Of a stretch of 12,976 nt of DNA, positions 1-12,976 are shown piece by piece. The stretch is from Candidatus Sumerlaeia bacterium (GTDB lineage Bacteria > Sumerlaeota > Sumerlaeia > SLMS01): assembly GCA_038208905.1 (NCBI GenBank), contig JBBQYG010000117.1, forward strand, positions 1-12,976, in the 5' to 3' direction. The notes beneath the pieces were generated by a model, which made no database searches, was not told the DNA's origin, and saw only the letters and a program-made list of their open reading frames with translations. The stretch's first letter is position 1; each line of letters starts with the position of its first letter. The translations under genes and the position numbers were made by a program.

Positions 1-1
1 C

Positions 2-481
2 GGCGTGACGGCGCTCCCCGATTCGGGCCGCATCCTCGTGCTCGATGGCGTCCGCGATCCCGGCAACGCGGGGACTCTGGTACGCTCCGCCGCGGCCTTT
101 GGCTTCGCGGCGGTCCTGGCGGATACGTCTATCAATCTATACAACGAGAAGATGATCCGCGCCAGCGCGGGCACTTGCTTCCTTCCCGGCACGGTCGCCG
201 CGGGCGGCTCCCCCGCCGATCTTTCGCGCGAGCTGGCCGGACGCGGCTTCCGGATCGTGACGCTGGAGCCCCGCGCGGACCACGACCTGCGCGATGTGGC
301 GCTCGACCCAAAGCGCCCGCTGGCACTTGTTCTTGGCGGAGAGGTCGCGGGCATCGACCCCGCCGCATGGGTCGGCGCCACCGGAGCGCGGATTCCGATG
401 CGGAGAGACGTGGAATCGCTCAACGTCGGCGTGGCGGGGGCCATCGCGCTCTATGAGCTGTCGTCGAGAATCCCTCGATGA
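2..481 (+). CDS. SpoU/TrmH-family (SPOUT) RNA 2'-O-methyltransferase, probably 5'-truncated by the window edge
   Basis: All three SpoU motifs are present: LDGVRDPGNAGTLVRSAAAFG, LVLGGEVAGI and IPMRRDVESLNVGVAGAIALYE. The frame is open from base 2, so the GTG at 5 may not be the true start. The stop overlaps the waaA start (ATGA, 478-481). Substrate (tRNA or rRNA) cannot be determined. Confidence 0.92.
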   Translation, partial: GVTALPDSGRILVLDGVRDPGNAGTLVRSAAAFGFAAVLADTSINLYNEKMIRASAGTCFLPGTVAAGGSPADLSRELAGRGFRIVTLEPRADHDLRDVALDPKRPLALVLGGEVAGIDPAAWVGATGARIPMRRDVESLNVGVAGAIALYELSSRIPR

Positions 482-1776
482 ACGGGATCGACCTGGCCTA
501 TCTGGCCGCGTCGCCCGCGTTTCTGGCGCCGATGGTTTGGAAGCGCTGGCGCCACGGCAAGTACCGCCGCTCGCTTCCCGGCATGTTCGGCGCGAACCTG
601 CCCGAGCCCCCGCTGGCAGAAGGGCCCCGCGTGTGGCTGCACTCCGTCAGCGTCGGCGAAACCATCGCCGCCGGGGCCGTGTTCCGCGTGCTCCGCGAGC
701 ATCGCCCCGAGTGGGACTACCTCTCCACGACCACCACCGAAACCGGGCAGGATCAGGCAAAGCGAAGCCTCTCCGAGGCCCAGTACCACGACTTCGCGCC
801 GATCGACTTCTCTTGGAAGGTGCGCCGGTTTCTCCACGCCTACCGGCCATCGGCCTATCTCTTCTTCGAGACCGAAATCTGGCCCAACATTCTGCGCGAA
901 TGCGGTCGCCGCCGGATGCCCGCCTTCCTCGTCAACGGCAAGTTGTCGGAACGGTCGGCGCGTGGATATGCGAAGATCGGTTTCGCCCTGCGGGGCCCGC
1001 TTTCCAACGTGCGCGCGTTCCTGATGCAAACGGAGCCCGACGCGGAGCGGCTAGCCCGCGTGATCGGACGGGAGCGGGCGATCCTCGTCACGGGAAATGT
1101 GAAGTTCGACAACCTCCCCGCGCCGCTTTCCGGCGACGAGCGCGTCGCCATGCGCGCGCAATTTGGAATCGCCGCGGATGAACTTCTGCTAATGGCGGGA
1201 AGCACGCACCCCGGCGAGGAGAAAGCTGTCTATACAGCCTTCGCCGCCCTCCGCAATGGCGCCGCGCCCGGCGCGCGGCTGGTCATTGCGCCACGGCACC
1301 CCGAGCGATTCGACGACGTTGCGCGCGAGCTGGAAAAACTCGGCGCCACAGTCCACCGCATGAGCTCGGGCGATGCGCCGCGCTCTGGAAAACCCGTGGT
1401 GCTCCTGGACAAGATGGGTGTGCTGGGGCGCAGCTTTGGCGCGGCGGATATCGCGCTGGTGGGCGGAGCGTGGAATCCCATCGGCGGCCACAACCTGCTG
1501 GAGCCCGCGGCCCACGGTGTGCCCGTGGTCCACGGCCCGCACATGCACGCCCAGCGGGAAATAATGCGCATCGCGCGCGCGCACGACGCCACCATCGAGG
1601 CCGACGAGGCGTCGCTCGCCGACGCGCTGGGCCAACTTGCGAATTCCGAAAGCCGCCGCGCGGAACTGGGCGAGCGTGGCCGCGAGGCGGCCCGCCAGAA
1701 CGCCGGAGCCGCCCACCGGAGCGTCGATCTGATCCTGGGCCTTATCGACTCCGCGCCGCGGCACCGCCGGGCCTGA
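478..1776 (+). CDS. waaA: 3-deoxy-D-manno-octulosonic acid (Kdo) transferase, GT30
   Basis: Characteristic motifs in order: VWLHSVSVGE, STTTTETG, FAPIDF, ETEIWPN, NGKLSERSARGY, TGNVKFD, AGSTHPGEE, IAPRHPERF, DKMGVL, GGHNLLEPA. N-terminal membrane anchor; 432 aa. Confidence 0.96.
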   Translation: MNGIDLAYLAASPAFLAPMVWKRWRHGKYRRSLPGMFGANLPEPPLAEGPRVWLHSVSVGETIAAGAVFRVLREHRPEWDYLSTTTTETGQDQAKRSLSEAQYHDFAPIDFSWKVRRFLHAYRPSAYLFFETEIWPNILRECGRRRMPAFLVNGKLSERSARGYAKIGFALRGPLSNVRAFLMQTEPDAERLARVIGRERAILVTGNVKFDNLPAPLSGDERVAMRAQFGIAADELLLMAGSTHPGEEKAVYTAFAALRNGAAPGARLVIAPRHPERFDDVARELEKLGATVHRMSSGDAPRSGKPVVLLDKMGVLGRSFGAADIALVGGAWNPIGGHNLLEPAAHGVPVVHGPHMHAQREIMRIARAHDATIEADEASLADALGQLANSESRRAELGERGREAARQNAGAAHRSVDLILGLIDSAPRHRRA

Positions 1777-2773
1777 CGATCCACACGCGGGCCAACTCGC
1801 CGCGCACCTTCACCTTCAGGCGCGGCTCGAAATCGACCCCCGTCATCCCCGCCTTCGCCGTGTCCACCGCCTTGTCGTCCGACGTCAGGATCACCGCTCG
1901 CCAAGTGGTGCCCTTGCCGATTCGGATCATCTCGTCGAAGAGGCGTCTATACAACACCGCGTTGCCGGCCTTGTCGCCAAACTGCTTCCCGAAGGGCAGG
2001 TTGGCCAGAAACACATCCACCGATCCCGCGGCCAGGCCCGTCGCCGCTCCGTCCTTTCGCTCAAGGCGTGCACCGTCGGCGAACTCCAGATTTCGCTTCG
2101 CCGAACTGACCGCCTGGGCGTCGGTGTCGAAGCCGATCAGCCTGGCGCCCGGCTGCATGTGGGCCGCCTCGGCCAGCAGGGTGCCCGACCCACAAACGGG
2201 ATCAAGAATCGTCTCGCCCGTCTTCGGCTCCGCCAGAAACGCCATCGCGGCCGCGGCGGTGGGCGGAAGCGCGCCCTGGCGCTCGATCATGCGGAGAGAT
2301 CGGCCCGGCACTTCCTCCGCCTTCCACCGCGGCGTGCAGATGTAATAGGACTCGTCGATGGCAAACACGTTCAACTCGTTCTCGCCCTCGTCCTCGTCGA
2401 TGCGAACCTCCATCGCGCGAAGCCGCTGGATTACGAAGCGTTGCAGGTCCTGGCGCGTAAACGTCTTGCCGTCCACGCTCACATTGACGCGCCACGCGCC
2501 GCGCCGCTGGAGCATCGCCTCCGACAGCACGTCAAACTGGGCGTGGGAAATCTTGAACCGGCCAAAGACGATGCACTCCTGGGCGTCCTCCGCCACGCGG
2601 AGCGTGGGCGTCACGGCCTTGGCCGTGCGCTGGAGAAAGATCAGGTCGTGGTTGCGCTGAAACAGGGTCGTCGGCTTTGCGCGCCCGTCCAACATGCGGG
2701 CGGTCCGCATTTCGGAAAGGAGGACCCGGCCGAGGCCGGGAATGGTGTGGATGACCCAGGAAGGCTTGCTCAT
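1742..2773 (-). CDS. UPF0020/THUMP-type SAM-dependent RNA methyltransferase (TrmN/Trm14/RlmL-like, probable m2G), 343 aa
   Basis: The likely start is ATG at 2773 (MSKPSWVIHTIPGLGRVLLSEM), overlapping the permease stop (ATGA). Motifs GALPPTAAAAM, ILDPVCGSGTLLAEAA (motif I), IGFDTDAQAV and ANLPFGKQFG (motif IV). The ORF-track extension to 3226 lies out of frame inside the permease. Confidence 0.85.
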   Translation of the reverse strand: MSKPSWVIHTIPGLGRVLLSEMRTARMLDGRAKPTTLFQRNHDLIFLQRTAKAVTPTLRVAEDAQECIVFGRFKISHAQFDVLSEAMLQRRGAWRVNVSVDGKTFTRQDLQRFVIQRLRAMEVRIDEDEGENELNVFAIDESYYICTPRWKAEEVPGRSLRMIERQGALPPTAAAAMAFLAEPKTGETILDPVCGSGTLLAEAAHMQPGARLIGFDTDAQAVSSAKRNLEFADGARLERKDGAATGLAAGSVDVFLANLPFGKQFGDKAGNAVLYRRLFDEMIRIGKGTTWRAVILTSDDKAVDTAKAGMTGVDFEPRLKVKVRGELARVWIVRPGGAAARSR

Positions 2774-4062
2774 GGCGAAATGCTCCGGCGGAGAGTCGCG
2801 CGCGCCGCAAGCCCGAGGGCAACGAAACAAACGCCGCCGACCCAGATTGCCGGTGGCACCCCAAACGCCAGAATCGCGCAACCCGCCAACCCAATCCACG
2901 AAATCACGCGCGGATACCGCCGCGATTCGCGTGGCAGCCGCAGCGCCGCCACGTTGGTTATCGCGTAGTAAACCAGCACGGTGAACGCGCTGGCCGACCA
3001 CGCGAGGGCAATGCTCCCCGGAATCACAAGCACCGCGATCACCGAGGCCGAGAACAGCACCGCCGCGGTGGCGCTCCGCCCATCGGGCCCCACGCGCGCC
3101 AGCCCCCTCGGCAAATCCCCCCGGCGCCCCATCGCCAGCACCACGCGGGAAATGCCGAGGATCAGGTTGAGGAGCACGCTCGCCATCGCCGCCAGCGCCC
3201 CCCAGGAAACCACGAGCCGGAGCCACCCGCTGCCGAGTGCGCTGGCCGCAGCCGCCAAGGGCGCCCCCGACTCGCGCGCCGCGCGGGCGAACTCACCCGC
3301 GCCCATCGCGGATAGCCCCGCCAGCGCCACCGCCAGATAGAGCGCCGTCACCAGCAGAGTAGTCGCGATGATTGCTCGCGGGATCGTGCGCGAAGGGTCG
3401 TGAACCTCCTCGCCCAGCGTCGCGATTCGCCCATAGCCGGTGAACGCCACAAACATCAGCGCCGTCGCCGCATAGAATCCGCCCGGCGTGAAGTCCGTCG
3501 CCGATGCCGCAAGGACGGCTCCTCCCCCGCCGCGACCCGTTGCGACCGCCACGAACAGCGCGAGCGCCCCCAGCGAGGCCGCAACCAGCACGGCGACCAC
3601 GCGGGTCGAAAGCCGGGCCCCCGCCAGCGCCACCCCACACGCCACCGCAAGAATCACAAGGGCCACGGGGACGCGCGGCACGGCCTCGGCCCCGGGAATC
3701 AGCGCAAGCCCATAGCCCGCGATGCCCAGTGCCGCCGTGGCCGCGGAGGCACACTTGGCCGCAACAAAGAGCAACCCCGCCGCAAAGCCCGCCGTGGGGA
3801 ACAGGAAGCGATAGGCGTATTCATAGGTGCCGCCGCTGACCGGGTGCGCCGCCGCGAGCTGTGCGCTGCCGAGAGCGTTGCACCCCGCAAGCGCCCCTGC
3901 CGCCAAAATCGCCGGCAGCACAGCCGCACCCGCCGCGCCCGCACCAAGCCCGATGCTGACGAACACTCCGGTCCCCACCATGGATCCAATGCCAAGAACG
4001 ATCGCGCCGCCGAGGCCGATCTCCCGCTTCAGCACCCCGCTCGATTCGGCACCGGTGGACAT
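2770..4062 (-). CDS. APC-superfamily amino acid permease
   Basis: LKREIGLGGAIVLGIGSMVGTGVF (TM1), SAQLAAAHPVSGGTYEY, FVAFTGYGRIATLGEEVHDPSRTIPRAI (TM6-7), SRVVLAMGRRGDLP. About 12 hydrophobic segments. Confidence 0.93.
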   Translation of the reverse strand: MSTGAESSGVLKREIGLGGAIVLGIGSMVGTGVFVSIGLGAGAAGAAVLPAILAAGALAGCNALGSAQLAAAHPVSGGTYEYAYRFLFPTAGFAAGLLFVAAKCASAATAALGIAGYGLALIPGAEAVPRVPVALVILAVACGVALAGARLSTRVVAVLVAASLGALALFVAVATGRGGGGAVLAASATDFTPGGFYAATALMFVAFTGYGRIATLGEEVHDPSRTIPRAIIATTLLVTALYLAVALAGLSAMGAGEFARAARESGAPLAAAASALGSGWLRLVVSWGALAAMASVLLNLILGISRVVLAMGRRGDLPRGLARVGPDGRSATAAVLFSASVIAVLVIPGSIALAWSASAFTVLVYYAITNVAALRLPRESRRYPRVISWIGLAGCAILAFGVPPAIWVGGVCFVALGLAARATLRRSISP

Positions 4063-4069
4063 GGGGCCA

Positions 4070-5446
4070 TCAGACCTTCAGGAAAATCTTCTTCCGATAG
4101 AGCGGGTATGTCAGCACGAGCCAAAGCACGACGTTGAACAGGGCAAAGGCCAGCGAGGCGTTCTTTGGCGTGTCGGGAAAGGTGGAGGTGCAGATGCTGT
4201 ATATCCACGAGCGGACGCTCACCGCTTTCTCATCGGTCGTCCAGCGGATCATCCCCATGAGCCTCGCCAGAATTCCCGAGGCAAAGAACACCAGAATCGC
4301 GTTCGTGCCCAATACCACGAAGGGGCCCGTCCACCACTTCGAGCCACGAACGTCGATGAAGTAATAGCACGCGCCGAGAATCACCAGCGCCCAGCCGGTC
4401 ATGAAGACGACATAGCTGCTGGACCAGATTGGCTTGTTGATGGGAAAGTACTGGTCCATGCACCAACCCGCGATCAGCATGGCGTTGCCAACGAGGAACA
4501 TGCCGAGGGCGATTTCCATGCGAGGGCGCTTGGCCAGAATCCAGTTTCCGGCGAGAACGCCGAAGAGCGTGGTGGCGATCGAGGGGATGGTGCTGAGAAG
4601 ACCCTCAGGATCCGGGCGCCCGCCGTAGAGGTGCGCGCCGAAAATCTTCACGTCAATCCAGTCGTGCAGTGCCCCCGGAAACGGCGCGCCTGCCGTTGCG
4701 CTGGCCCTGCCGCCGCCCGAGGTTCCGGCGATCCAGTCAATCGGGGCAGGTATATGCCGCACGATCAAGTAGTAGAGATTGATCAGCGCCAGCGCCCACG
4801 CCAGCCGCCCCCAAATCCCTGAATACATCACGATGACCGAGGCCGCTAGGTAGCACATGGCGATACGCTGCAGGACGCCGGGAATGCGGACGATACTCCC
4901 GCCCAGATTTCCCCCCCTTGGCCAGAGTGACTGGAGCCATCCCACCTTGTCGGAGACACTCAGTCGGTTTGGCCCTGAAAAATGGGCCCAATCCAGCGCG
5001 AGCCAGAGCACCGCCACCGTCAGCGCGGCAATTCCGATGGGGCTCCGGGTCACCTTTCCCGAATCCGCCAGGACGAAGTGAGCCCCCACGATGATTAGCG
5101 CCCACGGAATGATCAGCCGGAAGTTCGGGAACGACTGGAGGATCATCCCCAGCATGAACAGGATCGCCGCGCGTCGGCAGACCTGGACAAAGAGCCCCGC
5201 GCGGCTGTCTCCCCGCGCCAGTCGCTTGTCGAAGGAGAACGTCATCGCCACACCCACGATGAATAGGAAGAACGGAAAGATGAAATCCGTCGGCGTCCAC
5301 CCGTCCCACGGCGCGTGCTCAAGCGGGCCATAGATATGGTCCCAGCTCCCGGGGTTATTGACGAGCACCATCGCCGCGATCGTCAGCCCGCGAAAGACGT
5401 CCAGCGAAAGAAGGCGTCCGGCCGATTTTTCCGTTTCGTTTCCCAT
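4070..5446 (-). CDS. NagX / heparan-alpha-glucosaminide N-acetyltransferase (HGSNAT)-like integral membrane acyltransferase
   Basis: RLLSLDVFRGLTIAAMVLVN, LEHAPWDGWTPTDFIFPFFLFIVG, RIPGVLQRIA, DPEGLLSTIP, PINKPIWSSSYV, LGTNAI and C-terminal LYRKKIFLKV. Confidence 0.92.
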   Translation of the reverse strand: MGNETEKSAGRLLSLDVFRGLTIAAMVLVNNPGSWDHIYGPLEHAPWDGWTPTDFIFPFFLFIVGVAMTFSFDKRLARGDSRAGLFVQVCRRAAILFMLGMILQSFPNFRLIIPWALIIVGAHFVLADSGKVTRSPIGIAALTVAVLWLALDWAHFSGPNRLSVSDKVGWLQSLWPRGGNLGGSIVRIPGVLQRIAMCYLAASVIVMYSGIWGRLAWALALINLYYLIVRHIPAPIDWIAGTSGGGRASATAGAPFPGALHDWIDVKIFGAHLYGGRPDPEGLLSTIPSIATTLFGVLAGNWILAKRPRMEIALGMFLVGNAMLIAGWCMDQYFPINKPIWSSSYVVFMTGWALVILGACYYFIDVRGSKWWTGPFVVLGTNAILVFFASGILARLMGMIRWTTDEKAVSVRSWIYSICTSTFPDTPKNASLAFALFNVVLWLVLTYPLYRKKIFLKV

Positions 5447-5516
5447 GACAGACGAAATGCGCCCCGACCGCCCAAAGGGTCAAGCGCCAGATGCATTGCG
5501 ATGAAGGGGGGAAAAG

Positions 5517-5604
5517 TGGTGGATGGGCTAGGATTTGAACCTAGGTAGGGATTCCTCCCGCCGGATTTACAGTCCGGTGCATTTGACCGCTCTGCCACCC
5601 ATCC
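5517..5604 (-). tRNA. tRNA-Tyr (anticodon GUA), long variable arm, CCA encoded, 88 nt
   Basis: Reverse complement GGATGGG TG GCAGAGCGGTCAAATGC A CCGGA CTGTAAA TCCGG CGGGAGGAATCCCTAC CTAGG TTCAAAT CCTAG CCCATCC A CCA. It gives a perfect 7-bp acceptor stem, 5-bp anticodon and T stems, and discriminator A73. Confidence 0.98.
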
Positions 5605-5617
5605 ACGGGTGCCCAAG

Positions 5618-5633
5618 GCCGGGGTACCCCGGC
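5618..5633. repeat. Perfect 16-bp palindrome GCCGGGGTACCCCGGC just upstream of the tRNA 5' end
   Basis: Read directly from the sequence; 13 nt from the mature tRNA 5' end. Function unknown. Confidence 0.6.
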
Positions 5634-5762
5634 AGGGGGGAGATTGGTAGGCCCGGGGCACGGCGCCGGGCAAGCGCAAAGTGGCGCGGACGAAGAATCC
5701 CAACCATGATTAGCCTGTCGACGGTTCGCACACTGCGATCACCTGACTCATCAAAGAGGCGG

Positions 5763-5942
5763 ATGCCCAAGACCCCCGAAGAAGCCAAGAATCGCAGCCG
5801 CAGCTACTCCACCGACATGAGCCCCGAGGACGTGGCGCGGCGGATCAATCTGGTTTCCGAGCTGCGCGCGATGGCGGTCAAGCTCGACAAGGCGAAGGTG
5901 CTGGGGCCGGTGGAGCCCAAGAAGGAACGACACGACCCCTGA
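5763..5942 (+). CDS. Small hypothetical protein, 59 aa (MPKTPEEAKN...DMSPEDVARRINLVSELRAMAVKL...)
   Basis: AAAGAGG Shine-Dalgarno just before ATG 5763. Codons end strongly in G/C. Predicted amphipathic helices. The ORF-track start at 5535 overlaps the tRNA and is implausible. Confidence 0.75.
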   Translation: MPKTPEEAKNRSRSYSTDMSPEDVARRINLVSELRAMAVKLDKAKVLGPVEPKKERHDP

Positions 5943-5965
5943 ACCGCTCGTCCACTGGATGGCCG

Positions 5966-6604
5966 CTACTTCGCTCCCAAGAACACCTTCCCTGAAACCA
6001 GCGGGATGATCTCGCCGGAAGTCACCTGCGTCACGGCGCCCTTGATGTCGCGGATGACGGCGTGGATGCGGATCGGTGTCTCGCCATCGAGCGCCACTAG
6101 TCCAGCGTGGCGGAGCTGTCCCGCCTCCAGTTCCGTGGCGATCTCGCGAAGGCCCTCGGGCCCGCCATCAGTCCAGGAGAGGTCCACCGTGCAGGCGTCG
6201 GAGTGGGCATCGGCGAAAGACCACGAAACTTCCACCTGGCCGCTGATGCATTCGCCCTGCCGAGCCACGGCGTATATATCCCCAAACGCGAAGGTCGGCG
6301 GGCTGTTTTCGCCCACATAGAGCTGGTCAATGCCCGCGCAGCCTTCGATGCGGGTGCCGGGCGCCTTGGTGTTGCCCTTGGTTCCGGTGCCGAATTCATA
6401 GGGAATGTACTCCACCTTCCAGACCTCGTCCTCGCCGATGAAGAGGCTGCTGACCTGCGGCGAGCCGTCGAGCTCGACCTTGTGGACAAAGGCCTCGCCG
6501 TTGTCCGTGGACTTGGACCTCCAAGGTTTGAATTCACCGAAGCCCGCGAGCCGGGAACTTTTGATATCCAGAGTCTTGTATGGTCGCAAAAGTTCCCCCG
6601 ACAA
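5966..6604 (-). pseudogene. Probable C-terminal fragment of a secreted protein with an Ig-like beta-sandwich domain; true start unclear
   Basis: 5966 to about 6510 has host-like G/C-ending codons and the pattern NSPPTF...VSWSFADAHSDACTVDLSW...IHAVIRDIKGA, typical of bacterial Ig-like modules. There is no signal peptide. The TTG start has no Shine-Dalgarno and sits one codon after an in-frame TAG. The first ~30 codons are AT-rich and coincide with an inverted repeat. Confidence 0.5.
6553..6597. repeat. 11-bp perfect inverted repeat GGGAACTTTTG-N23-CAAAAGTTCCC
   Basis: Arms at 6553-6563 and 6587-6597, read directly. Confidence 0.8.
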
Positions 6605-6654
6605 CTTCTATTGAGGCCATCCGGCTATCAATCGCGCGCCCCCGCCGCCCCAAG

Positions 6655-6690
6655 GTTCCCATGCGGGCAGTTTGCTCCCCTCATGGGAAC
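6655..6690. repeat. Inverted repeat GTTCCCATG-N18-CATGGGAAC, with extra imperfect internal pairing
   Basis: Arms at 6655-6663 and 6682-6690, in the divergent intergenic region upstream of the lolA-like gene. Confidence 0.75.
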
Positions 6691-6756
6691 TGCGGGACTC
6701 TGTCCTTGCACTTCACCGGAGCCCGCCGGGAGCGTTGCCGGCGGAGGATGGCTCTT

Positions 6757-7515
6757 ATGGTTCGGCGGCTGATCGTGGCGGCTTTGGCGGGTTGTATGGC
6801 AATGGCGGCTGGCCTCCGGGGTCAGGAGGCGACGACGCCCACGCTTGCCCTCGCGGATGCGCCCTCCACGGCGACCATCGCGGCTCAGCAGCCGGGGGAT
6901 TCGCCCGAGGTGGCCTTCCTGCGGCTGATTGAGGCGAAGAACGGCGAAACCCGCTCCCTCCAAGCCGAGTTCACCCAGACCCGGGTTGACCGCGTGTTCA
7001 GCGACGAGGTGGTCAGCGAGGGGGAGTTCTGGTACGAGGCTCCCGGCTTGTTTCGCGCCAGCTACAAGGGCGACAAGGACTCGGGGTCCGAGGACTCCGA
7101 TATCTGGATGAAGGATAACAAGCTGATCTCCTACACTCCCTCCCTGCGCCAGGTGGAGATTGTCCAGCAGGCCGCCGGGGACAGGGCGCCGGTGAACCAG
7201 CTTCTCCTCGGATTCGGGGTCAAGGTGGAGCGCATCCAGCGCCTTTTCGAGGTACAGCCCGCCGCCAAGCCCCGGCCCGGCACCACCGGCATTCGCTTTG
7301 TTTCCCGGGACGTGGATTTTTCGCTGGGCTACGACTCGATCACCGTTTACTTTGACACCACCCGCCGGGAACCGCAGATCATTCTTCTGGAACAGGAAGA
7401 TCAGGAGATCACCGTGGAACTGAAGAAAGTCCGCATGAACCCCCAGATCAAGCCGTCGGTCTTCGAGACCAAGTGGCCCAAGAACGTGGAAATCCTGGAG
7501 TACAAGCAACTGTGA
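6757..7515 (+). CDS. lolA: LolA-family outer-membrane lipoprotein carrier protein, 252 aa
   Basis: GGAGG at 6743-6747, 9 nt before ATG 6757 (alternative ATG at 6748). Signal peptide, Ala/Thr/Pro linker, then SLQAEFTQ...SEGEFWYEAPGLFRASY...ISYTPSLRQV...NPQIKPSVF, the LolA-fold pattern. Could be a paralogue rather than the true orthologue. Confidence 0.82.
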   Translation: MVRRLIVAALAGCMAMAAGLRGQEATTPTLALADAPSTATIAAQQPGDSPEVAFLRLIEAKNGETRSLQAEFTQTRVDRVFSDEVVSEGEFWYEAPGLFRASYKGDKDSGSEDSDIWMKDNKLISYTPSLRQVEIVQQAAGDRAPVNQLLLGFGVKVERIQRLFEVQPAAKPRPGTTGIRFVSRDVDFSLGYDSITVYFDTTRREPQIILLEQEDQEITVELKKVRMNPQIKPSVFETKWPKNVEILEYKQL

Positions 7516-8120
7516 CCCCGACCCCCCGCCTCCTCTCGCTGTTGGCTCTTGTCGCGCTGACCGTTCTTGCCGCGACCGGCTGCACCCCCGTTGTCCGCGA
7601 CCGGACGCTGCCGCCGTCGGTGCGCTCCGTCCACGTTCCGATGATCGTCAATCGGACGCAGCAGCCCGGGCTGGAGGAGCGCCTTACCGTGGCCTTCCAG
7701 CGCGAGCTTCTGGCCGACGGCCGCCTCGACGTGGTCAAGGAGACCAAGGCCGACGCCATTGTGCGGATGACCATCGACAACTTCGACGATTATCCTGCGG
7801 CGCTCGACGCCGATGGATTTGGCGTCAGCCGCCAGTGGGACGTCAGGGCCCGGATGGAAATCCTGGAGAACATCCCCGGGCGCCCGAGCATCGGGGGCGT
7901 GCGCAAGATCAAGGCGCGCTGGGTCTCCAACGACGATTCGCGGACGACGACCTTCACGCCGGAAAGCCGCGAGATCGAGGAGTTGGCCACGATCTTTGGC
8001 CGCGAGGCGCTGCTGGAACTCATCACCGGCGAGTTCGAGGAAATCGCCCCCGAGCTTGAGGAGGCGCAGGGCCGCGAAGGGCGCGAGATGCCAACGGCGG
8101 GCATCGAGCTCCCCCGATAG
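7512..8120 (+). CDS. lptE: LptE-like (LPS assembly) outer-membrane lipoprotein, 202 aa
   Basis: GTG start overlaps the lolA stop (GTGA, 7512-7515). Lipoprotein signal with lipobox LAATG-C. LPPSVRSVHVPMIVNRTQQPGLEERLTVAFQRELLADGRLDVV...ADAIVRMTI matches the LptE-like pattern. Confidence 0.75.
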   Translation: MTPTPRLLSLLALVALTVLAATGCTPVVRDRTLPPSVRSVHVPMIVNRTQQPGLEERLTVAFQRELLADGRLDVVKETKADAIVRMTIDNFDDYPAALDADGFGVSRQWDVRARMEILENIPGRPSIGGVRKIKARWVSNDDSRTTTFTPESREIEELATIFGREALLELITGEFEEIAPELEEAQGREGREMPTAGIELPR

Positions 8121-8132
8121 CGGCGCACCGCC

Positions 8133-10214
8133 ATGGCACGCGCGGCCATCGAGACCGTCGGCGAGCTTCGGTCTCGATTCCGGCGGCACAGTCTGCTGGT
8201 CGTCAGCACGGCCCTCTATCTGGCGGCAATCGCCGGAACGCTCTACACCATCGAGACCGCCTATTACCTCCCTGCAAAATGGGATCTGATCCGCATACAG
8301 CTGTCGGATAGGTCCTACATCGATTCCAAGACGGGGATCGACTATCATCTGGCGGCGATCGAATACGCATCGGCGCACTATCACAATGCTCCCGCTGATC
8401 GCATGGAGAGCATTCGCGGGCGCCTGAAAGAGCGTGGGCGAGCTTACATGGATGCCTCGCCCACGCTGACGGCACTCCTGCTGGAAACCACCGCGGGCGA
8501 GCAACTCTACTTTGCCGAGCGGCGGGTGCGCCTGGCCGCACAGCACAACTTTAGCAATAGCATCCTGACACGCTCCTTTGAGCGACAGGCCCAGCAGACG
8601 ATCGCGCGCCCCGGCGACGCGCTGGAGACCTATGCGGTTAGCCGCGTCTTTGTGACAACGGCGTTGGGGAACCCGGCCATCGAGAGGCTGACGAATTCCT
8701 ATCGCGCGGCGATGCTGGGATCCGTGGGGTTTCTCTCTCTGATCTACTACATGCTGCTGATTCTGCTGATCCTTCCGCTCAGTCGGCTGCTGGCATGCTT
8801 GGAGATGCGCCAGGGCGGCGGCTCCACGATCATTGCGTCGCCTCGAAGCCACGTCGAGCGCGCCTACAACTCGCTGGCGCGTGACGCCTCGCTCACGCGC
8901 CTCTCGAAGGAACTGCGGGAGATCATCTCCGGCGAGGGGCTGTCCCACGTGGAGCCATTCCTCGACCGAGTGCCCAGGCTGGTGGAAAACAATCTGGGGA
9001 TTGTCGGGTGCCAAGTGTGGGCCGCGTCTCGCCGCACGGGAAGCGGCGCATGGCAGATCGAGAAGTCCTTCGCGCGGGAGCTGACTTGGTTCCGTCCCGC
9101 CGACTTCGCCCCCGTGCTGGAGACACTCCTTGGCGATTCGGTTCCCCAGGCCGGCGTCGGTCATTTAGCCCGGGCGGGCGATGGCGAAGGGGGTCATGCG
9201 TTCTTCTGGGATGTTCTGGATTCGACGCATGAGCGCCTCCTCCTGTTCGTGGTCCAGATACCGCCGGGAGCCCCCGAGCCCGCGCCCTGGTGGATCGACT
9301 GCTTCTCCCGCGTGGGAAACGAACTGCGCTACGCCATCTTCAGCGTCGAGGAACAGCGGCGCATGATCCTCGCCGAGAAGTCCAAGGCCAACGTCTCGCT
9401 CTCGCGGAATCTGGGGCACGACCTGACCAACATCATCGCCACCAGCAAGCTGGAGCTGATGAACGTGAAGATGTTCCTCTCGATGAGGGCCGAGGACGTG
9501 AGGAAATCCCCCGCCAAGGAGCAGATCTTCCGCGAGTCGCTGGAGGCGCTCCTCAACAATACGCGCTTCCTGCAGGAAATCGTGAACCTCTACCGCAGCT
9601 TCAGCTATATCCAGAAGCCCCGCTTCGAGGAGGTGGACATCGCCGAGCTGGTGGAGGACGTGTCCCAGCTCTATCGCCTCTCCGTCTCCCGCCACATCCG
9701 CGTGGAAACTCGACTTGCGGGGGACATTCCGCCGGTGCGCGTCGAGCCCCGCCTGCTCAGGCTCGCGCTCTTCAACCTCCTCACCAACGCCGCCGAGGCG
9801 ATCAAGCGCGCCACCTCCGCCGACAACCCCGCCGGATCCATTGTCGTCTCCGCGCAATTCGACGCGGCCCAGCGCCGCATCGCCATCGCCGTGGAAGACA
9901 CGGGCACGGGAATCTGCGATAGGGACGGGAACCTGTTGAATCCCGACCAGTTGTCGGAGATTTTTCGTCTGGGCTTCTCGACCAAGGCCAATCAGGAGGG
10001 CGAGGGCCTGGGTCTTAACTGGGTGCAGACCATCGTCCGCGAGTTCCACGGCGGAGAGATCGTTGCCGCAAACCGGCCCGGGGGGGGCGCCAGCTTTGCC
10101 ATCCGCCTCCCCACGGCACACCACGCCGGCATGGATTCCTCGACCAAGTTTACCTCGGCAAAGCGGGGCGAAGAGCACACACTCCAGGAAGCCAGAGGGG
10201 AAACGATACCATGA
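8133..10214 (+). CDS. Membrane sensor histidine kinase (TM, periplasmic domain, TM, cytoplasmic linker possibly GAF-like, HisKA, HATPase), 693 aa
   Basis: Two hydrophobic helices (LLVVSTALYLAAIAGTLY; MLGSVGFLSLIYYMLLILLILPL). H-box SRNLGHDLTNII (His429, nt 9417-9419), N-box LFNLLTNAAEA, G1 VEDTGTGI, F-box IFRLGFSTK, G2 GEGLGL. Confidence 0.95.
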   Translation: MARAAIETVGELRSRFRRHSLLVVSTALYLAAIAGTLYTIETAYYLPAKWDLIRIQLSDRSYIDSKTGIDYHLAAIEYASAHYHNAPADRMESIRGRLKERGRAYMDASPTLTALLLETTAGEQLYFAERRVRLAAQHNFSNSILTRSFERQAQQTIARPGDALETYAVSRVFVTTALGNPAIERLTNSYRAAMLGSVGFLSLIYYMLLILLILPLSRLLACLEMRQGGGSTIIASPRSHVERAYNSLARDASLTRLSKELREIISGEGLSHVEPFLDRVPRLVENNLGIVGCQVWAASRRTGSGAWQIEKSFARELTWFRPADFAPVLETLLGDSVPQAGVGHLARAGDGEGGHAFFWDVLDSTHERLLLFVVQIPPGAPEPAPWWIDCFSRVGNELRYAIFSVEEQRRMILAEKSKANVSLSRNLGHDLTNIIATSKLELMNVKMFLSMRAEDVRKSPAKEQIFRESLEALLNNTRFLQEIVNLYRSFSYIQKPRFEEVDIAELVEDVSQLYRLSVSRHIRVETRLAGDIPPVRVEPRLLRLALFNLLTNAAEAIKRATSADNPAGSIVVSAQFDAAQRRIAIAVEDTGTGICDRDGNLLNPDQLSEIFRLGFSTKANQEGEGLGLNWVQTIVREFHGGEIVAANRPGGGASFAIRLPTAHHAGMDSSTKFTSAKRGEEHTLQEARGETIP

Positions 10215-11476
10215 GCACCAAGGTCCTGATTGTTGACGACAACGAGCTGTACCGGACGGCGTTCCGCCGCAACCTGATCCTGAAGGACTACGAGGTGACG
10301 GAGGCCGAGAACGCCGACGACGCCCTGCGCTCCTACGAGCAATCCGTCCCCGATATCGTGGTGACGGACCTGAGCATGAGGACGCCGACGGAGGGCCTCG
10401 ACCTGATCCGCTCCCTCAAGCAGATCGATCCGCTCATGCCCGTGGTGCTGATCTCCGCCGTGGGCACCTTCGAGGAGGGGTCCCTCGCCAAGGAACTCGG
10501 TGCCGATCGCGTCCTGATGAAGCAGAAGATCGACGAACACATCGAGGAACTCTACGACGCGATCGAGAAGGCCCGCGGCATGGGCGCGCAGCTCCGCGCA
10601 ATGCGTGCGGAGATCGATAAGATCGCCTCCAAGCCCGAGTCCGTCACGCCCGCCCAGGTGGCGCGCCTGCGCGAGATCATCTCCAAGCCCGGCCAGCACC
10701 CGGTGATCCTGGCGGAGGGCTATGACGCGATGGCGCTGGCCACGGAAAAGGACATCCGCATTGCCATCGAGAAGCAGATCGACAGTGCCGCGGAGGCCGG
10801 CGTCCGCGATGCGGAACACCGCCTGACCGAGTTCCTTCCCGAACTCGCCAAGTTCGCGCCCGAGACGATCAAGGAACTGCGCACGGCGGAGTACTTCTTT
10901 CAGCGGCAGGGCGGCGACAAGCCCCAGGACGCCGTGGACTTCTCCCGCAACATCGGCTTCTCCTTCTGCTTCGCCGTGGAGAACGAGGCGAAGGTCCGCC
11001 TGCGCAAAAAGCTCCAGAAGTTCCTCTCCGACAGCGGCAGCGTGAAGCTCATCCGCAGCCTCCTCGACGGCCGATCGGGCCAGCTCGACATCTTCTATCA
11101 TCAGTATTTGCTAAGGCTCGAGCAGCAGATCAGCTTCGACTTCACCGTGGACAACGTGCGCCAGGTGTTCCAGCGCATCCTTGAACACGAGTCGCGCTAC
11201 AAGCCGGACGGACTCAAGGCCCTTGGCATCATGATCGTGTGCTTTGGGCGCGAATACACCGTCAAGGGACTGAAGGGGCCGGTGAAGGTCCAAAATCCCC
11301 TGGCGCTGCGCGCGTTCAACACCGACGAGGAGGTGCTGCGCTTCGCCCACCTGCTCGTCTCGCTCCAGCACTACCGCAACCCGTATATACACCCGGAAAT
11401 CAGCGAGATGGAGAAGGTCTCCAAGATACGCGAGACGGCCATCCTATGCCTCAAGGAAATCGCGCGCCTCCCGTGA
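10211..11476 (+). CDS. Response regulator: receiver domain, helical linker and putative HEPN-like C-terminal domain, 421 aa
   Basis: Receiver residues are intact: D9/D10, phosphoacceptor D53 (DIVVTDL), S82, K104. ATGA overlap with the kinase. No recognisable HTH, AAA+, GGDEF, EAL or HD-GYP motif. The C-terminus has DFSRNIGFSFCFAVENE and RNPYIH. The receiver call is secure; the HEPN call is inferred. Confidence 0.9.
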   Translation: MSTKVLIVDDNELYRTAFRRNLILKDYEVTEAENADDALRSYEQSVPDIVVTDLSMRTPTEGLDLIRSLKQIDPLMPVVLISAVGTFEEGSLAKELGADRVLMKQKIDEHIEELYDAIEKARGMGAQLRAMRAEIDKIASKPESVTPAQVARLREIISKPGQHPVILAEGYDAMALATEKDIRIAIEKQIDSAAEAGVRDAEHRLTEFLPELAKFAPETIKELRTAEYFFQRQGGDKPQDAVDFSRNIGFSFCFAVENEAKVRLRKKLQKFLSDSGSVKLIRSLLDGRSGQLDIFYHQYLLRLEQQISFDFTVDNVRQVFQRILEHESRYKPDGLKALGIMIVCFGREYTVKGLKGPVKVQNPLALRAFNTDEEVLRFAHLLVSLQHYRNPYIHPEISEMEKVSKIRETAILCLKEIARLP

Positions 11477-12783
11477 GCAAGAACCTTGGCCGCACCATTC
11501 GCCGCATCGCGCCGTTGATCGCGCTGGTCCTCCTCGCGCGGGTCCTAACCGCCCAGGCGGTCGGCCCCGATCCGCGGTGGATCGCGCTCTTCGAGCGGTG
11601 CTACGGAACCGAGGGCCTCTACACGGTGGAGATGTATCCGGAAGACGAGGAAGGCGCCTCGCGCCTCAACCTCCAGTTGCTGAATGCCTCGGCGCGCGAA
11701 TTGAGAAAATCCGGAATCCGGACGATCCCAAGCGCCGAGGACCTCGTGGCGCGCGGCGCCGTGGCGGGGCTCCATCCGCATCCCGCCGAGGAGTCCTATC
11801 TCTGGGACTCCGCCCGCAATTGCTTCGAGAGTTCACTCGGCGGCAAGAACTCGACGGCGCAGGGGGCGCTCACGCTGCTTCGCGCCAACGCCGACGTGCG
11901 CCGGCGGATGCTCTCGCCCGATATGTTTGTGCGCCAGCGGTGGAAGCAGGTGTACCAAAGCCCCGACTGCCCACCCTTCCTGAAGAATGAGATCCTCCTT
12001 CGCGAGTTCCTCCTCGACAAGTACGAGATCGCCAGCGCCCAGACCGCCCACTCGATTCAGCAGACCCTTGTGATGATTGAGGAGGGCATCAAGCTCTACG
12101 CGATTCGCGAGAAGAAGAACCTTGGCGACTCCATCACGATGGAGGAACTCATCGCGTCGCGCCTCATTGGTTCCGTGGAGCGCCCGCCCGAAGGCGTGGA
12201 GATCATCGTCAAGTCCATCGGCGAAGCGCCGCGAGCCACCTTCGACGGTGCCGAGATAACCACCGATCCCTCCAGCGTGGAGGCCTATCACCGCGCCAAG
12301 GTCGAGAAGGCCTGGACAGCCTATCCCAACTTTCCCCCGGCCATCGCCCTGAAGGCGCGATTCGCCACGCCCGGGGAAGCCATCAAGCTGATCGACAACG
12401 CCGTGATGCGCTGGCCCGGCGTGCCCGGAATGCGCATCGAGCGCATGGCACACAATGCGCGGCTCAAGCGCTTCGACGCATGGCGCGAGGACCTTGGCTA
12501 CCTCCTCGGGCACTTCCCCACGGCACCGGTTCTTTTCGAGATGCAGTCCATGGCCGAGGCCGCCGAGGTACTCGCCGACGAGACCGAGCGGGCGCGCCTG
12601 GCCACGGCCCTGGCGGATATACGCCCCGACCTTCTCAGCCACCAGCTCGCCGCGATTCAGGCGTTGGTTGACTCCAAGAAAATCGACGCCGCGCGCCTGA
12701 TCCACGCCCGCATGGTGGCAACACAGCCGGGCTGGGCACAGGTCCTTCCGCCGCCGGGGTCCGAGCCCCCGCCCGCGAATTGA
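11473..12783 (+). CDS. Secreted hypothetical protein, 436 aa, with two pilin-head-like repeats and a TPR-like helical C-terminus
   Basis: GTG start overlaps the regulator stop (GTGA, 11473-11476). Sec signal MSKNLGRTIRRIAPLIALVLLARVLTAQA (AQA cleavage site). Host-like codon usage. Domain guesses are by eye. Confidence 0.8.
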   Translation: MSKNLGRTIRRIAPLIALVLLARVLTAQAVGPDPRWIALFERCYGTEGLYTVEMYPEDEEGASRLNLQLLNASARELRKSGIRTIPSAEDLVARGAVAGLHPHPAEESYLWDSARNCFESSLGGKNSTAQGALTLLRANADVRRRMLSPDMFVRQRWKQVYQSPDCPPFLKNEILLREFLLDKYEIASAQTAHSIQQTLVMIEEGIKLYAIREKKNLGDSITMEELIASRLIGSVERPPEGVEIIVKSIGEAPRATFDGAEITTDPSSVEAYHRAKVEKAWTAYPNFPPAIALKARFATPGEAIKLIDNAVMRWPGVPGMRIERMAHNARLKRFDAWREDLGYLLGHFPTAPVLFEMQSMAEAAEVLADETERARLATALADIRPDLLSHQLAAIQALVDSKKIDAARLIHARMVATQPGWAQVLPPPGSEPPPAN

Positions 12784-12976
12784 ACCATCTGGCGCACCTT
12801 GCCCTTTCCGACGGCACCGGGCCGTCGATGGCGGGGAACATGATGGCCGACTCGATCAAGGGACGCCAGATCGACGCGCTCCCACCCGCAATGCGCGAGG
12901 GCGTCCGGCAGCATCGGGCCGTGGACGCTTTTACCGACGCCCACCCCCGCGTCCTTGCCAGCATCGCCCGCCTCAA
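12780..12976 (+). CDS. acpH: Acyl carrier protein phosphodiesterase (AcpH/YajB family), 3'-truncated; absent from the ORF track
   Basis: TTG at 12780 overlaps the previous stop (TTGA). It translates as MNHLAHLALSDGTGPSMAGNMMADSIKGRQIDALPPAMREGVRQHRAVDAFTDAHPRV, matching the AcpH pattern MNxLAH...GN..AD..KG...G...HR.xD.xTD.HP. Confidence 0.92.
   Translation, partial: MNHLAHLALSDGTGPSMAGNMMADSIKGRQIDALPPAMREGVRQHRAVDAFTDAHPRVLASIARL

Follow-up and report, generated by a model that had tools for sequence, protein, structure and literature searches.

The response regulator and its receiver domain

The window, by which we mean the whole stretch of DNA analysed, comprises 12,976 nucleotides (nt) from a Candidatus Sumerlaeia bacterium (assembly GCA_038208905.1, contig JBBQYG010000117.1, positions 1-12,976, forward strand). 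It holds a response regulator gene that lies directly behind a gene for a membrane sensor histidine kinase, within a run of genes for outer-membrane biogenesis (Table 1). The regulator consists of a receiver (REC) domain, a helical linker and a C-terminal output domain of about 200 residues, and a sequence-only reading of this DNA had proposed that the output domain is a HEPN ribonuclease (RNase). From the sequence motifs and the predicted structure, we put the probability that the protein is a phosphorylation-switched, HEPN-like RNase at about one half.

The protein is a genuine two-component response regulator. Pfam PF00072 (Response_reg) matches residues 5-111 with an E-value of 8.3e-20 (71.5 bits against a cut-off of 30.2), and a Pfam scan of the 421-residue regulator gave nothing else above noise. 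In an alignment of 63 full-length rows, made up of the window protein and 62 loci from species-representative genomes, D9, D10, D53, S82 and K104 are each kept in 63 of 63 rows, so the complete phosphorylatable receiver claimed in the sequence-only reading is there. The residue three before K104, which by CheY numbering is the usual aromatic switch position, is an invariant Val in the same alignment. When a predicted full-length model was searched against the PDB with Foldseek, CheY, Spo0F and RR468 were matched with target-normalised template-modelling (TM) scores of 0.85-0.90; receiver matches were the only ones returned, and RssB, PorX and EutV are among them through their REC domains. The NtrC, RssB and PhoB-like models of NCBIfam cover the receiver only, from residue 1 to ~150, with RssB and NtrC the best. 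The receiver is acidic, with an isoelectric point (pI) of 4.45. Two open reading frames (ORFs) on the opposite strand, at 9992-11101 and 11111-11392, lie over the regulator and were taken as the usual shadows of a gene with 64% G+C.

Predicted structure of the linker and the output domain

AlphaFold2 gave a full-length model with a mean predicted local distance difference test (pLDDT) score of 87.2 and a predicted TM score (pTM) of 0.76, from a 33-sequence alignment, and a model of residues 142-421 with a pLDDT of 90.0 and a pTM of 0.87, from a 62-sequence alignment. Behind the receiver, the models show the helical linker of about 100 residues that the sequence-only reading had described, a helix at 111-140 followed by four or five more up to residue ~214. 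The linker matched no family in Pfam at E<=10, either in the window protein or, among the 25 of 44 families listed, in the other members. The C-terminal domain is predicted to contain helices at 217-232, 245-273, 275-283, 294-306, 313-329, 334-345, 372-389 and 399-418. The same reading had called this region of ~200 residues 'all-helical', which holds for all of it but one short beta-hairpin (348-351, 358-361) that interrupts the helices. The coordinates that it quoted are correct: the codon of E221 begins at nt 10871, that of K261 finishes at nt 10993, and nt 11375-11392 encode R389-H394.

We propose that helices 217-232, 245-273, 372-389 and 399-418 form the core of the domain, with an insert of ~100 residues (275-361) after the second. 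HEPN domains, as described in the part of a survey available to us (PMC3710099), have a four-helix up-down core built from two alpha-hairpins, with frequent inserts between helices 2 and 3. The predicted helix order of the output domain, and its ~100-residue insert between core helices 2 and 3, fit that layout. The domain has a pI of 9.2 (median 9.05 and range 6.4-9.8 in 62 relatives), and a basic output domain beside an acidic receiver speaks for an RNase.

Conserved motifs in the output domain

The same survey text describes two features of the HEPN active site (PMC3710099). An acidic residue of helix 2 often stands in an E-x3-[KR] motif, near an R-x4-6-H motif in which a polar residue follows the Arg and which spans helix 3's end and the loop before the last helix. 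R389-N-P-Y-I-H394 has the R-x4-6-H form, including the polar N390 after the Arg and the position at a helix end and in a loop: in the predicted structure R389 is the final residue of helix 372-389, N390 comes next, H394 falls within the loop, and 399-418 is the last helix. E257-x3-K261 is predicted to sit in the second core helix, as does the HEPN E-x3-[KR]; this placement is one of predicted secondary structure.

Judged from the alignment, no intact relative departs from either motif. E257 and K261 are each found in 63 of 63 rows, and R389, N390 and H394 in 62 of 63. In the one row that differs, L051, the assembly breaks within the gene, whose true C-terminus, reading LQHFRNPYIHPE, sits on another contig of the same assembly (L067). 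The conservation of E257, R389, N390 and H394 in homologues, which the sequence-only reading had put forward as a check of its proposal, is thus found. No conserved block is longer than the stretch Q386-H-x-R-N-P-Y-I-H-P-E-I397 in alignments where column identity averages 49-51%. P0142, the most divergent relative found (31% identity, from an exhaustive search), reads AVECEVR and RNPYVHP at the two sites, so an E-x3-R is kept. Because Q386-I397 is the longest conserved block and the motif is kept in the most divergent relative, the conservation of R-N-x3-H goes beyond chance. The HEPN-type residues are also retained in a second divergent relative, P0144.

Further polar residues are invariant: E227, R246, Y330, D333, K336, Q386, H387 and R407. 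Three of them belong to a second invariant block, Y330-K-P-D333-G-L-K336-A, in which Y330, D333, G334 and K336 are found in 63 of 63 rows. This block raises the alternative that the domain is a different enzyme, for instance a hydrolase or phosphodiesterase whose substrate is a nucleotide messenger or a small molecule, with a site formed by H387, H394, E257, D333, Y330 and K336 and with the R-x4-H as one part of it. The block is as invariant as R-N-x3-H and is not among the HEPN features given in the available part of PMC3710099. Enzymatic outputs that act on small messengers are common in response regulators, and phosphohydrolase and phosphodiesterase entries occur among the weak Foldseek rows for the domain (E ~0.7). 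Yet no hydrolase family was matched in Pfam, among the families listed, or in NCBIfam, and the named language-model neighbours described below are HEPN families rather than hydrolases, bar one Met-zincin cluster (0.76). P0142 also cuts against it, since E325, H326, Y330 and D333 are all changed there and the HEPN-type residues stay. We consider a different enzyme rather unlikely, and the pattern of loss and retention in P0142, together with the retention in P0144, would favour a HEPN-like RNase.

Searches for HEPN and other folds

Residues 215-421 form a well-modelled, strongly conserved output domain that matches nothing in the libraries searched, and the searches weigh against a HEPN assignment as a body. 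Two C-terminal pieces of the window protein matched no HEPN model in Pfam at E<=10; a phage head-tail joining model appeared alone, at an E-value of 0.1-0.3, which is noise. No HEPN model is among the 25 of 44 Pfam families listed for 62 members at the same threshold, and none of these 25 matches more than three of the 62. NCBIfam, run over 64 members, gave no match to a HEPN model. PADLOC gave no HEPN model and no match of any kind to the C-terminal domain, its one match, to an SduA model, being confined to residues 2-85 of the receiver. Against the sequences of the PDB, a single-sequence query returned no matches at E<=10, and a profile query returned five weak matches, none of them HEPN. 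Nor did structure comparison supply what sequence did not: for residues 142-421 (pLDDT 90) Foldseek found no match at E<=0.001 in the PDB (best E 0.24, an aspartase model) or in BFVD (best E 0.39). HEPN entries occur in these lists at noise level, a Csm6 chain at rank 42 (5yjc_B, E 0.81) and a phage MAE-28990-like HEPN protein at rank 5 (E 0.56). In hhalign, two alignments of the family were compared with a 19-sequence alignment of RnlA (the C-terminal Dmd-binding/HEPN domain); the probabilities were 0.59% and 0.74%, with 0.1% for a reversed control, and the aligned stretch leaves the two R-x4-H motifs unpaired. The relation of E257, R389 and H394 is, moreover, known at the level of predicted secondary structure and not as distances in three dimensions.

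One independent pointer to HEPN comes from language-model neighbours in the ESM Atlas, as a lead only. The nearest named clusters are RnlA/LsoA HEPN_RnaseLS (0.82-0.86), Cas_Csm6_HEPN (0.81) and DUF4145 (0.79), and the named neighbours, at 0.76-0.86, are almost all HEPN families. Unnamed clusters of 177-215 residues score higher (0.91-0.93), and the top neighbour is a cluster without a name, found most often in Campylobacterota. An unnamed 414-residue cluster from Bacillota is also among the Atlas results. Two properties of these scores tell against the pointer: all named scores lie below 0.9 and are leads only by the Atlas's own rating, and ten neighbours of like family arise for one third of shuffled proteins.

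The claim of a HEPN output domain therefore stands in part. The Glu and the R-N-x3-H residues are at HEPN positions, but there is no significant match to a HEPN family in the libraries, in PDB sequences, in the RnlA alignment or by Foldseek; the comparison of an AlphaFold model with HEPN structures that had been suggested as a check gave no significant match in the PDB or BFVD. A match to some non-HEPN fold would have counted against the claim, and none was found either, by Foldseek in the PDB and BFVD or in the family libraries. As the domain matches no other known fold, these searches do not displace the HEPN proposal, and by the same token they leave it unproven.

Distribution of the family

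A word-indexed search with residues 125-421 found 367 relatives at E<=1e-3. A precomputed receiver domain is present in 117 of the 120 relatives listed out of the 367, and the other three are shorter fragments. When residues 201-421 were compared exhaustively by phmmer with 1.84 billion cluster representatives, 36 matched at E<=1e-3, all in the same regulator family and P0144 among them. A profile search for stand-alone relatives gave 351 matches at E<=1, of which the 120 listed all belong to the same family, and distant relatives were by this search neither found nor excluded. The C-terminal domain had no tblastn match in plasmids, and in phages a single one, taken as noise, at E=1 under an RNA ligase 2 gene. 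P0144, with 247 residues and a low-complexity N-terminus, is the sole relative found that has the C-terminal domain but no receiver; its gene may be partial or wrongly called, and it would then be no true stand-alone form.

The near-exclusive fusion to a receiver would suit a domain that does not cut anything. In this alternative the output domain is a new, non-catalytic helical domain, and the phosphorylated regulator binds a protein partner, as an adaptor or anti-adaptor in the manner of RssB, or binds RNA without cleaving it, in the manner of ANTAR; the invariant Arg, Asn, His and Glu would then make up a binding surface. The 36 representatives from 1.84 billion proteins, all of one family, accord with this, as does the lack of any match to an enzyme family in any library or to a known fold, and a basic pI suits the binding of nucleic acid as well as its cleavage. 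Binding surfaces, however, rarely hold so many invariant charged and His residues over a range of 34-82% identity (among them E227, R246, E257, K261, Y330, D333, K336, Q386, H387, R389, N390, H394 and R407), and the exact HEPN catalytic pattern, at the right places in the secondary structure, would have to be a coincidence. We see non-catalytic binding as a possible explanation, still well short of probable, and the strongest competitor of a HEPN-like RNase.

The names under which relatives are recorded point in another direction. Those of the relatives listed are generic ('response regulator', 'CheY-like') or conflicting ('NarL/FixJ', 'OmpR', 'YesN/AraC', 'sigma-54 dependent'), and the latter, along with the basic pI of the domain, would agree with a transcription factor of ordinary type, its helical DNA-binding domain having diverged beyond recognition. 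These names are automatic, however, and contradict one another. No helix-turn-helix, winged-helix, Fis or AAA+ model was matched in the C-terminal 300 residues in Pfam at E<=10 (for the members, among the 25 of 44 families listed). Foldseek, which is quick to find small DNA-binding domains, found none, and the query-normalised TM scores of FixJ, StyR and EutV in the full-length search are at most 0.31. We hold a transcription factor to be improbable, and the weakest of the alternatives, since neither a DNA-binding model nor such a fold turned up.

A scan of one genome per species found 67 loci. Their titles name Sumerlaeota, Sumerlaeia or BRC1 in 57 cases; six are titled 'bacterium' only (one as UBP4), two Omnitrophota and one Myxococcia. 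Each assembly has one locus, save the one in which the gene is split over two contigs (L051 and L067). Since there is one locus per assembly and 57 of the 67 are titled Sumerlaeota, Sumerlaeia or BRC1, the regulator is a single-copy, phylum-wide Sumerlaeota gene. Sumerlaeota is a candidate phylum known mainly from metagenome-assembled genomes.

In one member (L050:7646-8266) the C-terminal domain matches the NCBIfam model HP0729_fam (NF041917) at E 2.7e-05, scoring 23.6 bits where the cut-off is 250. Residues 2-114 of the domain are paired with profile positions 196-303 of 355. This model is matched by 4 of 64 members at E<=10, and the window protein is not among them. HP0729, the Helicobacter pylori gene from which the family takes its name, is entered as a 'probable ATP/GTP binding protein' in the available part of PMC3561388. 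A distant link between the C-terminal domain of the regulator and uncharacterised Campylobacterota proteins of the HP0729 family is possible on these sequence matches.

Genes around the regulator

The genes and features of the window are collected in Table 1. In order, the window carries the genes for a SpoU methylase and a Kdo transferase, then two on the minus strand for a methyltransferase and an amino-acid permease, the tRNA-Tyr gene, and the genes for the LolA-like carrier, the LptE-like lipoprotein, the kinase, the regulator, a 436-residue protein and the start of an acyl carrier protein phosphodiesterase.

Table 1. Features of the window, in order of position; sub-features of the regulator follow its gene.
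Feature	Position (nt)	Strand	Basis
SpoU-type RNA methylase	2-481		Stop overlaps start of Kdo transferase gene
Kdo transferase (WaaA/KdtA)	478-1776		
tRNA-Tyr, anticodon GTA	5517-5604	-	Rfam and ARAGORN
LolA-like lipoprotein carrier	6580-7515	+	Pfam LolA E 6.4e-12, TIGR00547 E 1.2e-14
LptE-like lipoprotein	7473-8120	+	Pfam LptE E 5.3e-05, 24.3 bits vs cut-off 23; lipobox-like signal sequence
Sensor histidine kinase, 693 residues	8133-10214	+	HATPase_c E 7.6e-17; kinase families over residues ~400-680
Response regulator, 421 residues and stop	10211-11476	+	Open reading frame and translation
Receiver (REC) domain, residues 5-111; phospho-acceptor D53 at nt 10367-10369	10223-10543	+	Pfam PF00072
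Helical linker, residues ~111-214: long helix 111-140, then four or five shorter	10541-10852	+	AlphaFold2
Output domain at the C-terminus, residues 215-421, HEPN-like in its motifs and in the order of its helices	10853-11473	+	AlphaFold2, motifs
E257-N-E-A-K261 (E-x3-K), inside predicted helix 245-273	10979-10993	+	63 of 63 rows
R389-N-P-Y-I-H394 (R-x4-H), end of predicted helix 372-389 and loop before last helix	11375-11392	+	62 of 63 rows
436-residue protein with signal-like N-terminal helix	11473-12783	+	Open reading frame; GTG start overlaps regulator stop (GTGA)
Acyl carrier protein phosphodiesterase, gene start	12780-12974		

We take the kinase to be the cognate partner of the regulator. 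Its stop codon overlaps the regulator start by 4 nt (ATGA), and two predicted membrane helices flank a loop of ~155 residues in it. The N-terminal 400 residues (8133-9400, plus strand), which hold this loop and a cytoplasmic stretch of ~190 residues, match no Pfam family, and for that reason the sensor domain of the kinase is also unannotated. The LptE-like gene is directly 5' of the kinase gene. The true start of the LolA gene is probably later within its ORF. The 436-residue protein downstream of the regulator matches no Pfam family above threshold, a TPR match being sub-threshold. Two minus-strand ORFs, at 4070-5446 (458 residues) and 5966-6604 (212 residues), are without a match in Pfam or, by tblastn, among the 67 related loci, and may or may not be real genes.

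Gene neighbourhood across 67 loci

A homologous kinase adjoins the regulator in 40 of the 67 loci (40 of the 59 with enough flank), 39 times upstream and once downstream. In 30 of the 67 loci the LptE-like gene immediately precedes that of the kinase, and LolA lies ~3 kb upstream of the regulator in 26. LolA, the LptE-like gene, the kinase and the regulator are thus a recurring Sumerlaeota cluster, which ties the two-component system to outer-membrane biogenesis. A relative of the 436-residue protein is found directly downstream in 9 of the 67 loci and elsewhere in one more (10 of 67 in total).

In a quick maximum-likelihood tree the kinase-linked state is scattered over the whole family, and two clades have lost the adjacent kinase. 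In these two clades RNase genes adjoin the regulator, a hint in favour of the RNase reading. RNase J is directly downstream in nine loci (L029-L032, L040, L042 and L044-L046), usually with a GNAT acetyltransferase on the other side; the eight that are in the tree form one clade (support 99), and the ninth, L040, is truncated and outside the tree. RNase PH is directly upstream in three loci (L058, L059 and L061), which form one clade (support 100). The adjacency is only a hint because it reflects two evolutionary events, not twelve; seen from the other side it is thin, two events beside housekeeping genes, and to that extent counts against the reading as well. In one small clade two other kinases replace the usual membrane kinase: upstream, a Ser/Thr protein kinase that carries a cNMP-binding domain (L014:5559-6971), or downstream, a 1015-residue hybrid kinase with GAF, REC and Hpt domains (L011:8184-11228).

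Most bacterial HEPN domains are toxins or defence effectors, in line with the available part of PMC3710099. To find one in a regulator that is single-copy and phylum-wide would be atypical, and this too weighs against the assignment. A role in defence or as part of a toxin-antitoxin pair was considered and rejected, because PADLOC found no defence model near the regulator and the gene, present once per genome, belongs to a conserved housekeeping cluster.

Proposed mechanism

The mechanism that we infer, with its HEPN fold, dimerisation, RNase activity, direction of switching and RNA targets, would build on what is established at the locus: the receiver and its phosphorylation site, the pairing with a kinase, the conserved motifs and the places that they take in the predicted secondary structure. 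D53 would be phosphorylated by the membrane histidine kinase whose gene lies just upstream. Phosphorylation would alter the packing or pairing of the receiver and the long linker helix, by which two C-terminal domains would be brought together, or released. R389, N390 and H394 would then form an RNA-cleaving site, helped by E257 and K261, to which the Y330-K-P-D333-G-L-K336 loop would probably contribute. The output domain would be a metal-independent ribonuclease, and the output of the system RNA cleavage and not transcription. The signal is most likely the state of the cell envelope or outer membrane, because the cluster of LolA, the LptE-like gene, kinase and regulator is conserved.

A more far-reaching version, which we offer as speculation and think doubtful as a whole, would make the system a bacterial counterpart of the Ire1 pathway. 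An envelope-sensing kinase would cause the REC-HEPN protein to dimerise and to cleave particular RNAs, such as a tRNA or the mRNAs for envelope proteins; the phylum as a whole would respond to envelope stress post-transcriptionally, and the RNase J and RNase PH of other clades would handle the products.

To our knowledge, almost all characterised response regulators act on transcription, second messengers or protein partners. If true, a phosphorylation-switched endoribonuclease would be a new output class in two-component signalling, would represent convergence with the logic of eukaryotic Ire1 and RNase L, and would place a HEPN nuclease in the role of a core single-copy bacterial regulator and not of a toxin or defence effector. 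The question is directly testable because the family is compact (~420 residues), conserved across the phylum and offers clear point mutants. Should the HEPN reading prove wrong, residues 215-421 would still be a conserved, well-modelled output domain without a match in the libraries searched.

Comparison with known systems

The sequence-only reading knew of no characterised REC-HEPN protein, and we found none described in the literature within our scope, with subscription journals and domain-architecture databases outside it, so that a record at database level is possible. In the available part of the HEPN survey, receivers appear only as an alternative partner of a membrane domain (PMC3710099). 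In the texts available to us, HEPN domains and receivers are treated separately, or REC is fused to domains other than HEPN; publications that mention both HEPN and a REC domain mostly concern, judged by title, the REC lobes of Cas proteins. A search of the literature for response regulators of Sumerlaeota returned nothing relevant.

Among response regulators, RssB, PorX, EutV (ANTAR) and CheB share with the Sumerlaeota protein the arrangement of a REC domain, a linker and then an enzymatic or a protein- or RNA-binding output. The output differs: that of the regulator is unrelated to the PP2C-like, PglZ, ANTAR and methylesterase domains of these proteins, and no match extends beyond residue ~150. 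Unlike the DNA-binding regulators of the OmpR, NarL, NtrC and LytTR types, the protein has no recognisable DNA-binding or AAA+ output, the matches to such regulators covering the receiver only.

With the HEPN RNases RnlA/LsoA, Csm6/Csx1, HepT and the KEN domains of Ire1 and RNase L, as they appear in the available part of PMC3710099, the output domain shares the R-x4-H with its polar residue, the E-x3-K, a predicted insert between core helices 2 and 3 and a basic, mostly helical domain. It differs from them in having no significant sequence, profile or fold match to the families tested and in its extra invariant Y-K-P-D-G-L-K loop. It also differs in its fusion to a receiver and in being a single-copy gene in a housekeeping neighbourhood, in neither a toxin-antitoxin pair nor a defence island.

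The closest parallel in logic would be Ire1 and RNase L, in which, as we propose here, a signalling domain controlled by phosphorylation drives the assembly of a C-terminal HEPN-type RNase, leading from stress to RNA cleavage. In these two proteins a kinase or pseudokinase is fused to a KEN/HEPN RNase. The input there is a Ser/Thr kinase, whereas that of the regulator is the receiver of a bacterial His-Asp phosphorelay. KEN is counted among the HEPN families and is a circularly permuted HEPN, according to the available part of the survey (PMC3710099); the domain of the regulator has the canonical order, and we do not claim homology. If the HEPN reading is right, the protein would be at once a known kind of response regulator with a new output and a known kind of HEPN nuclease with a new input.

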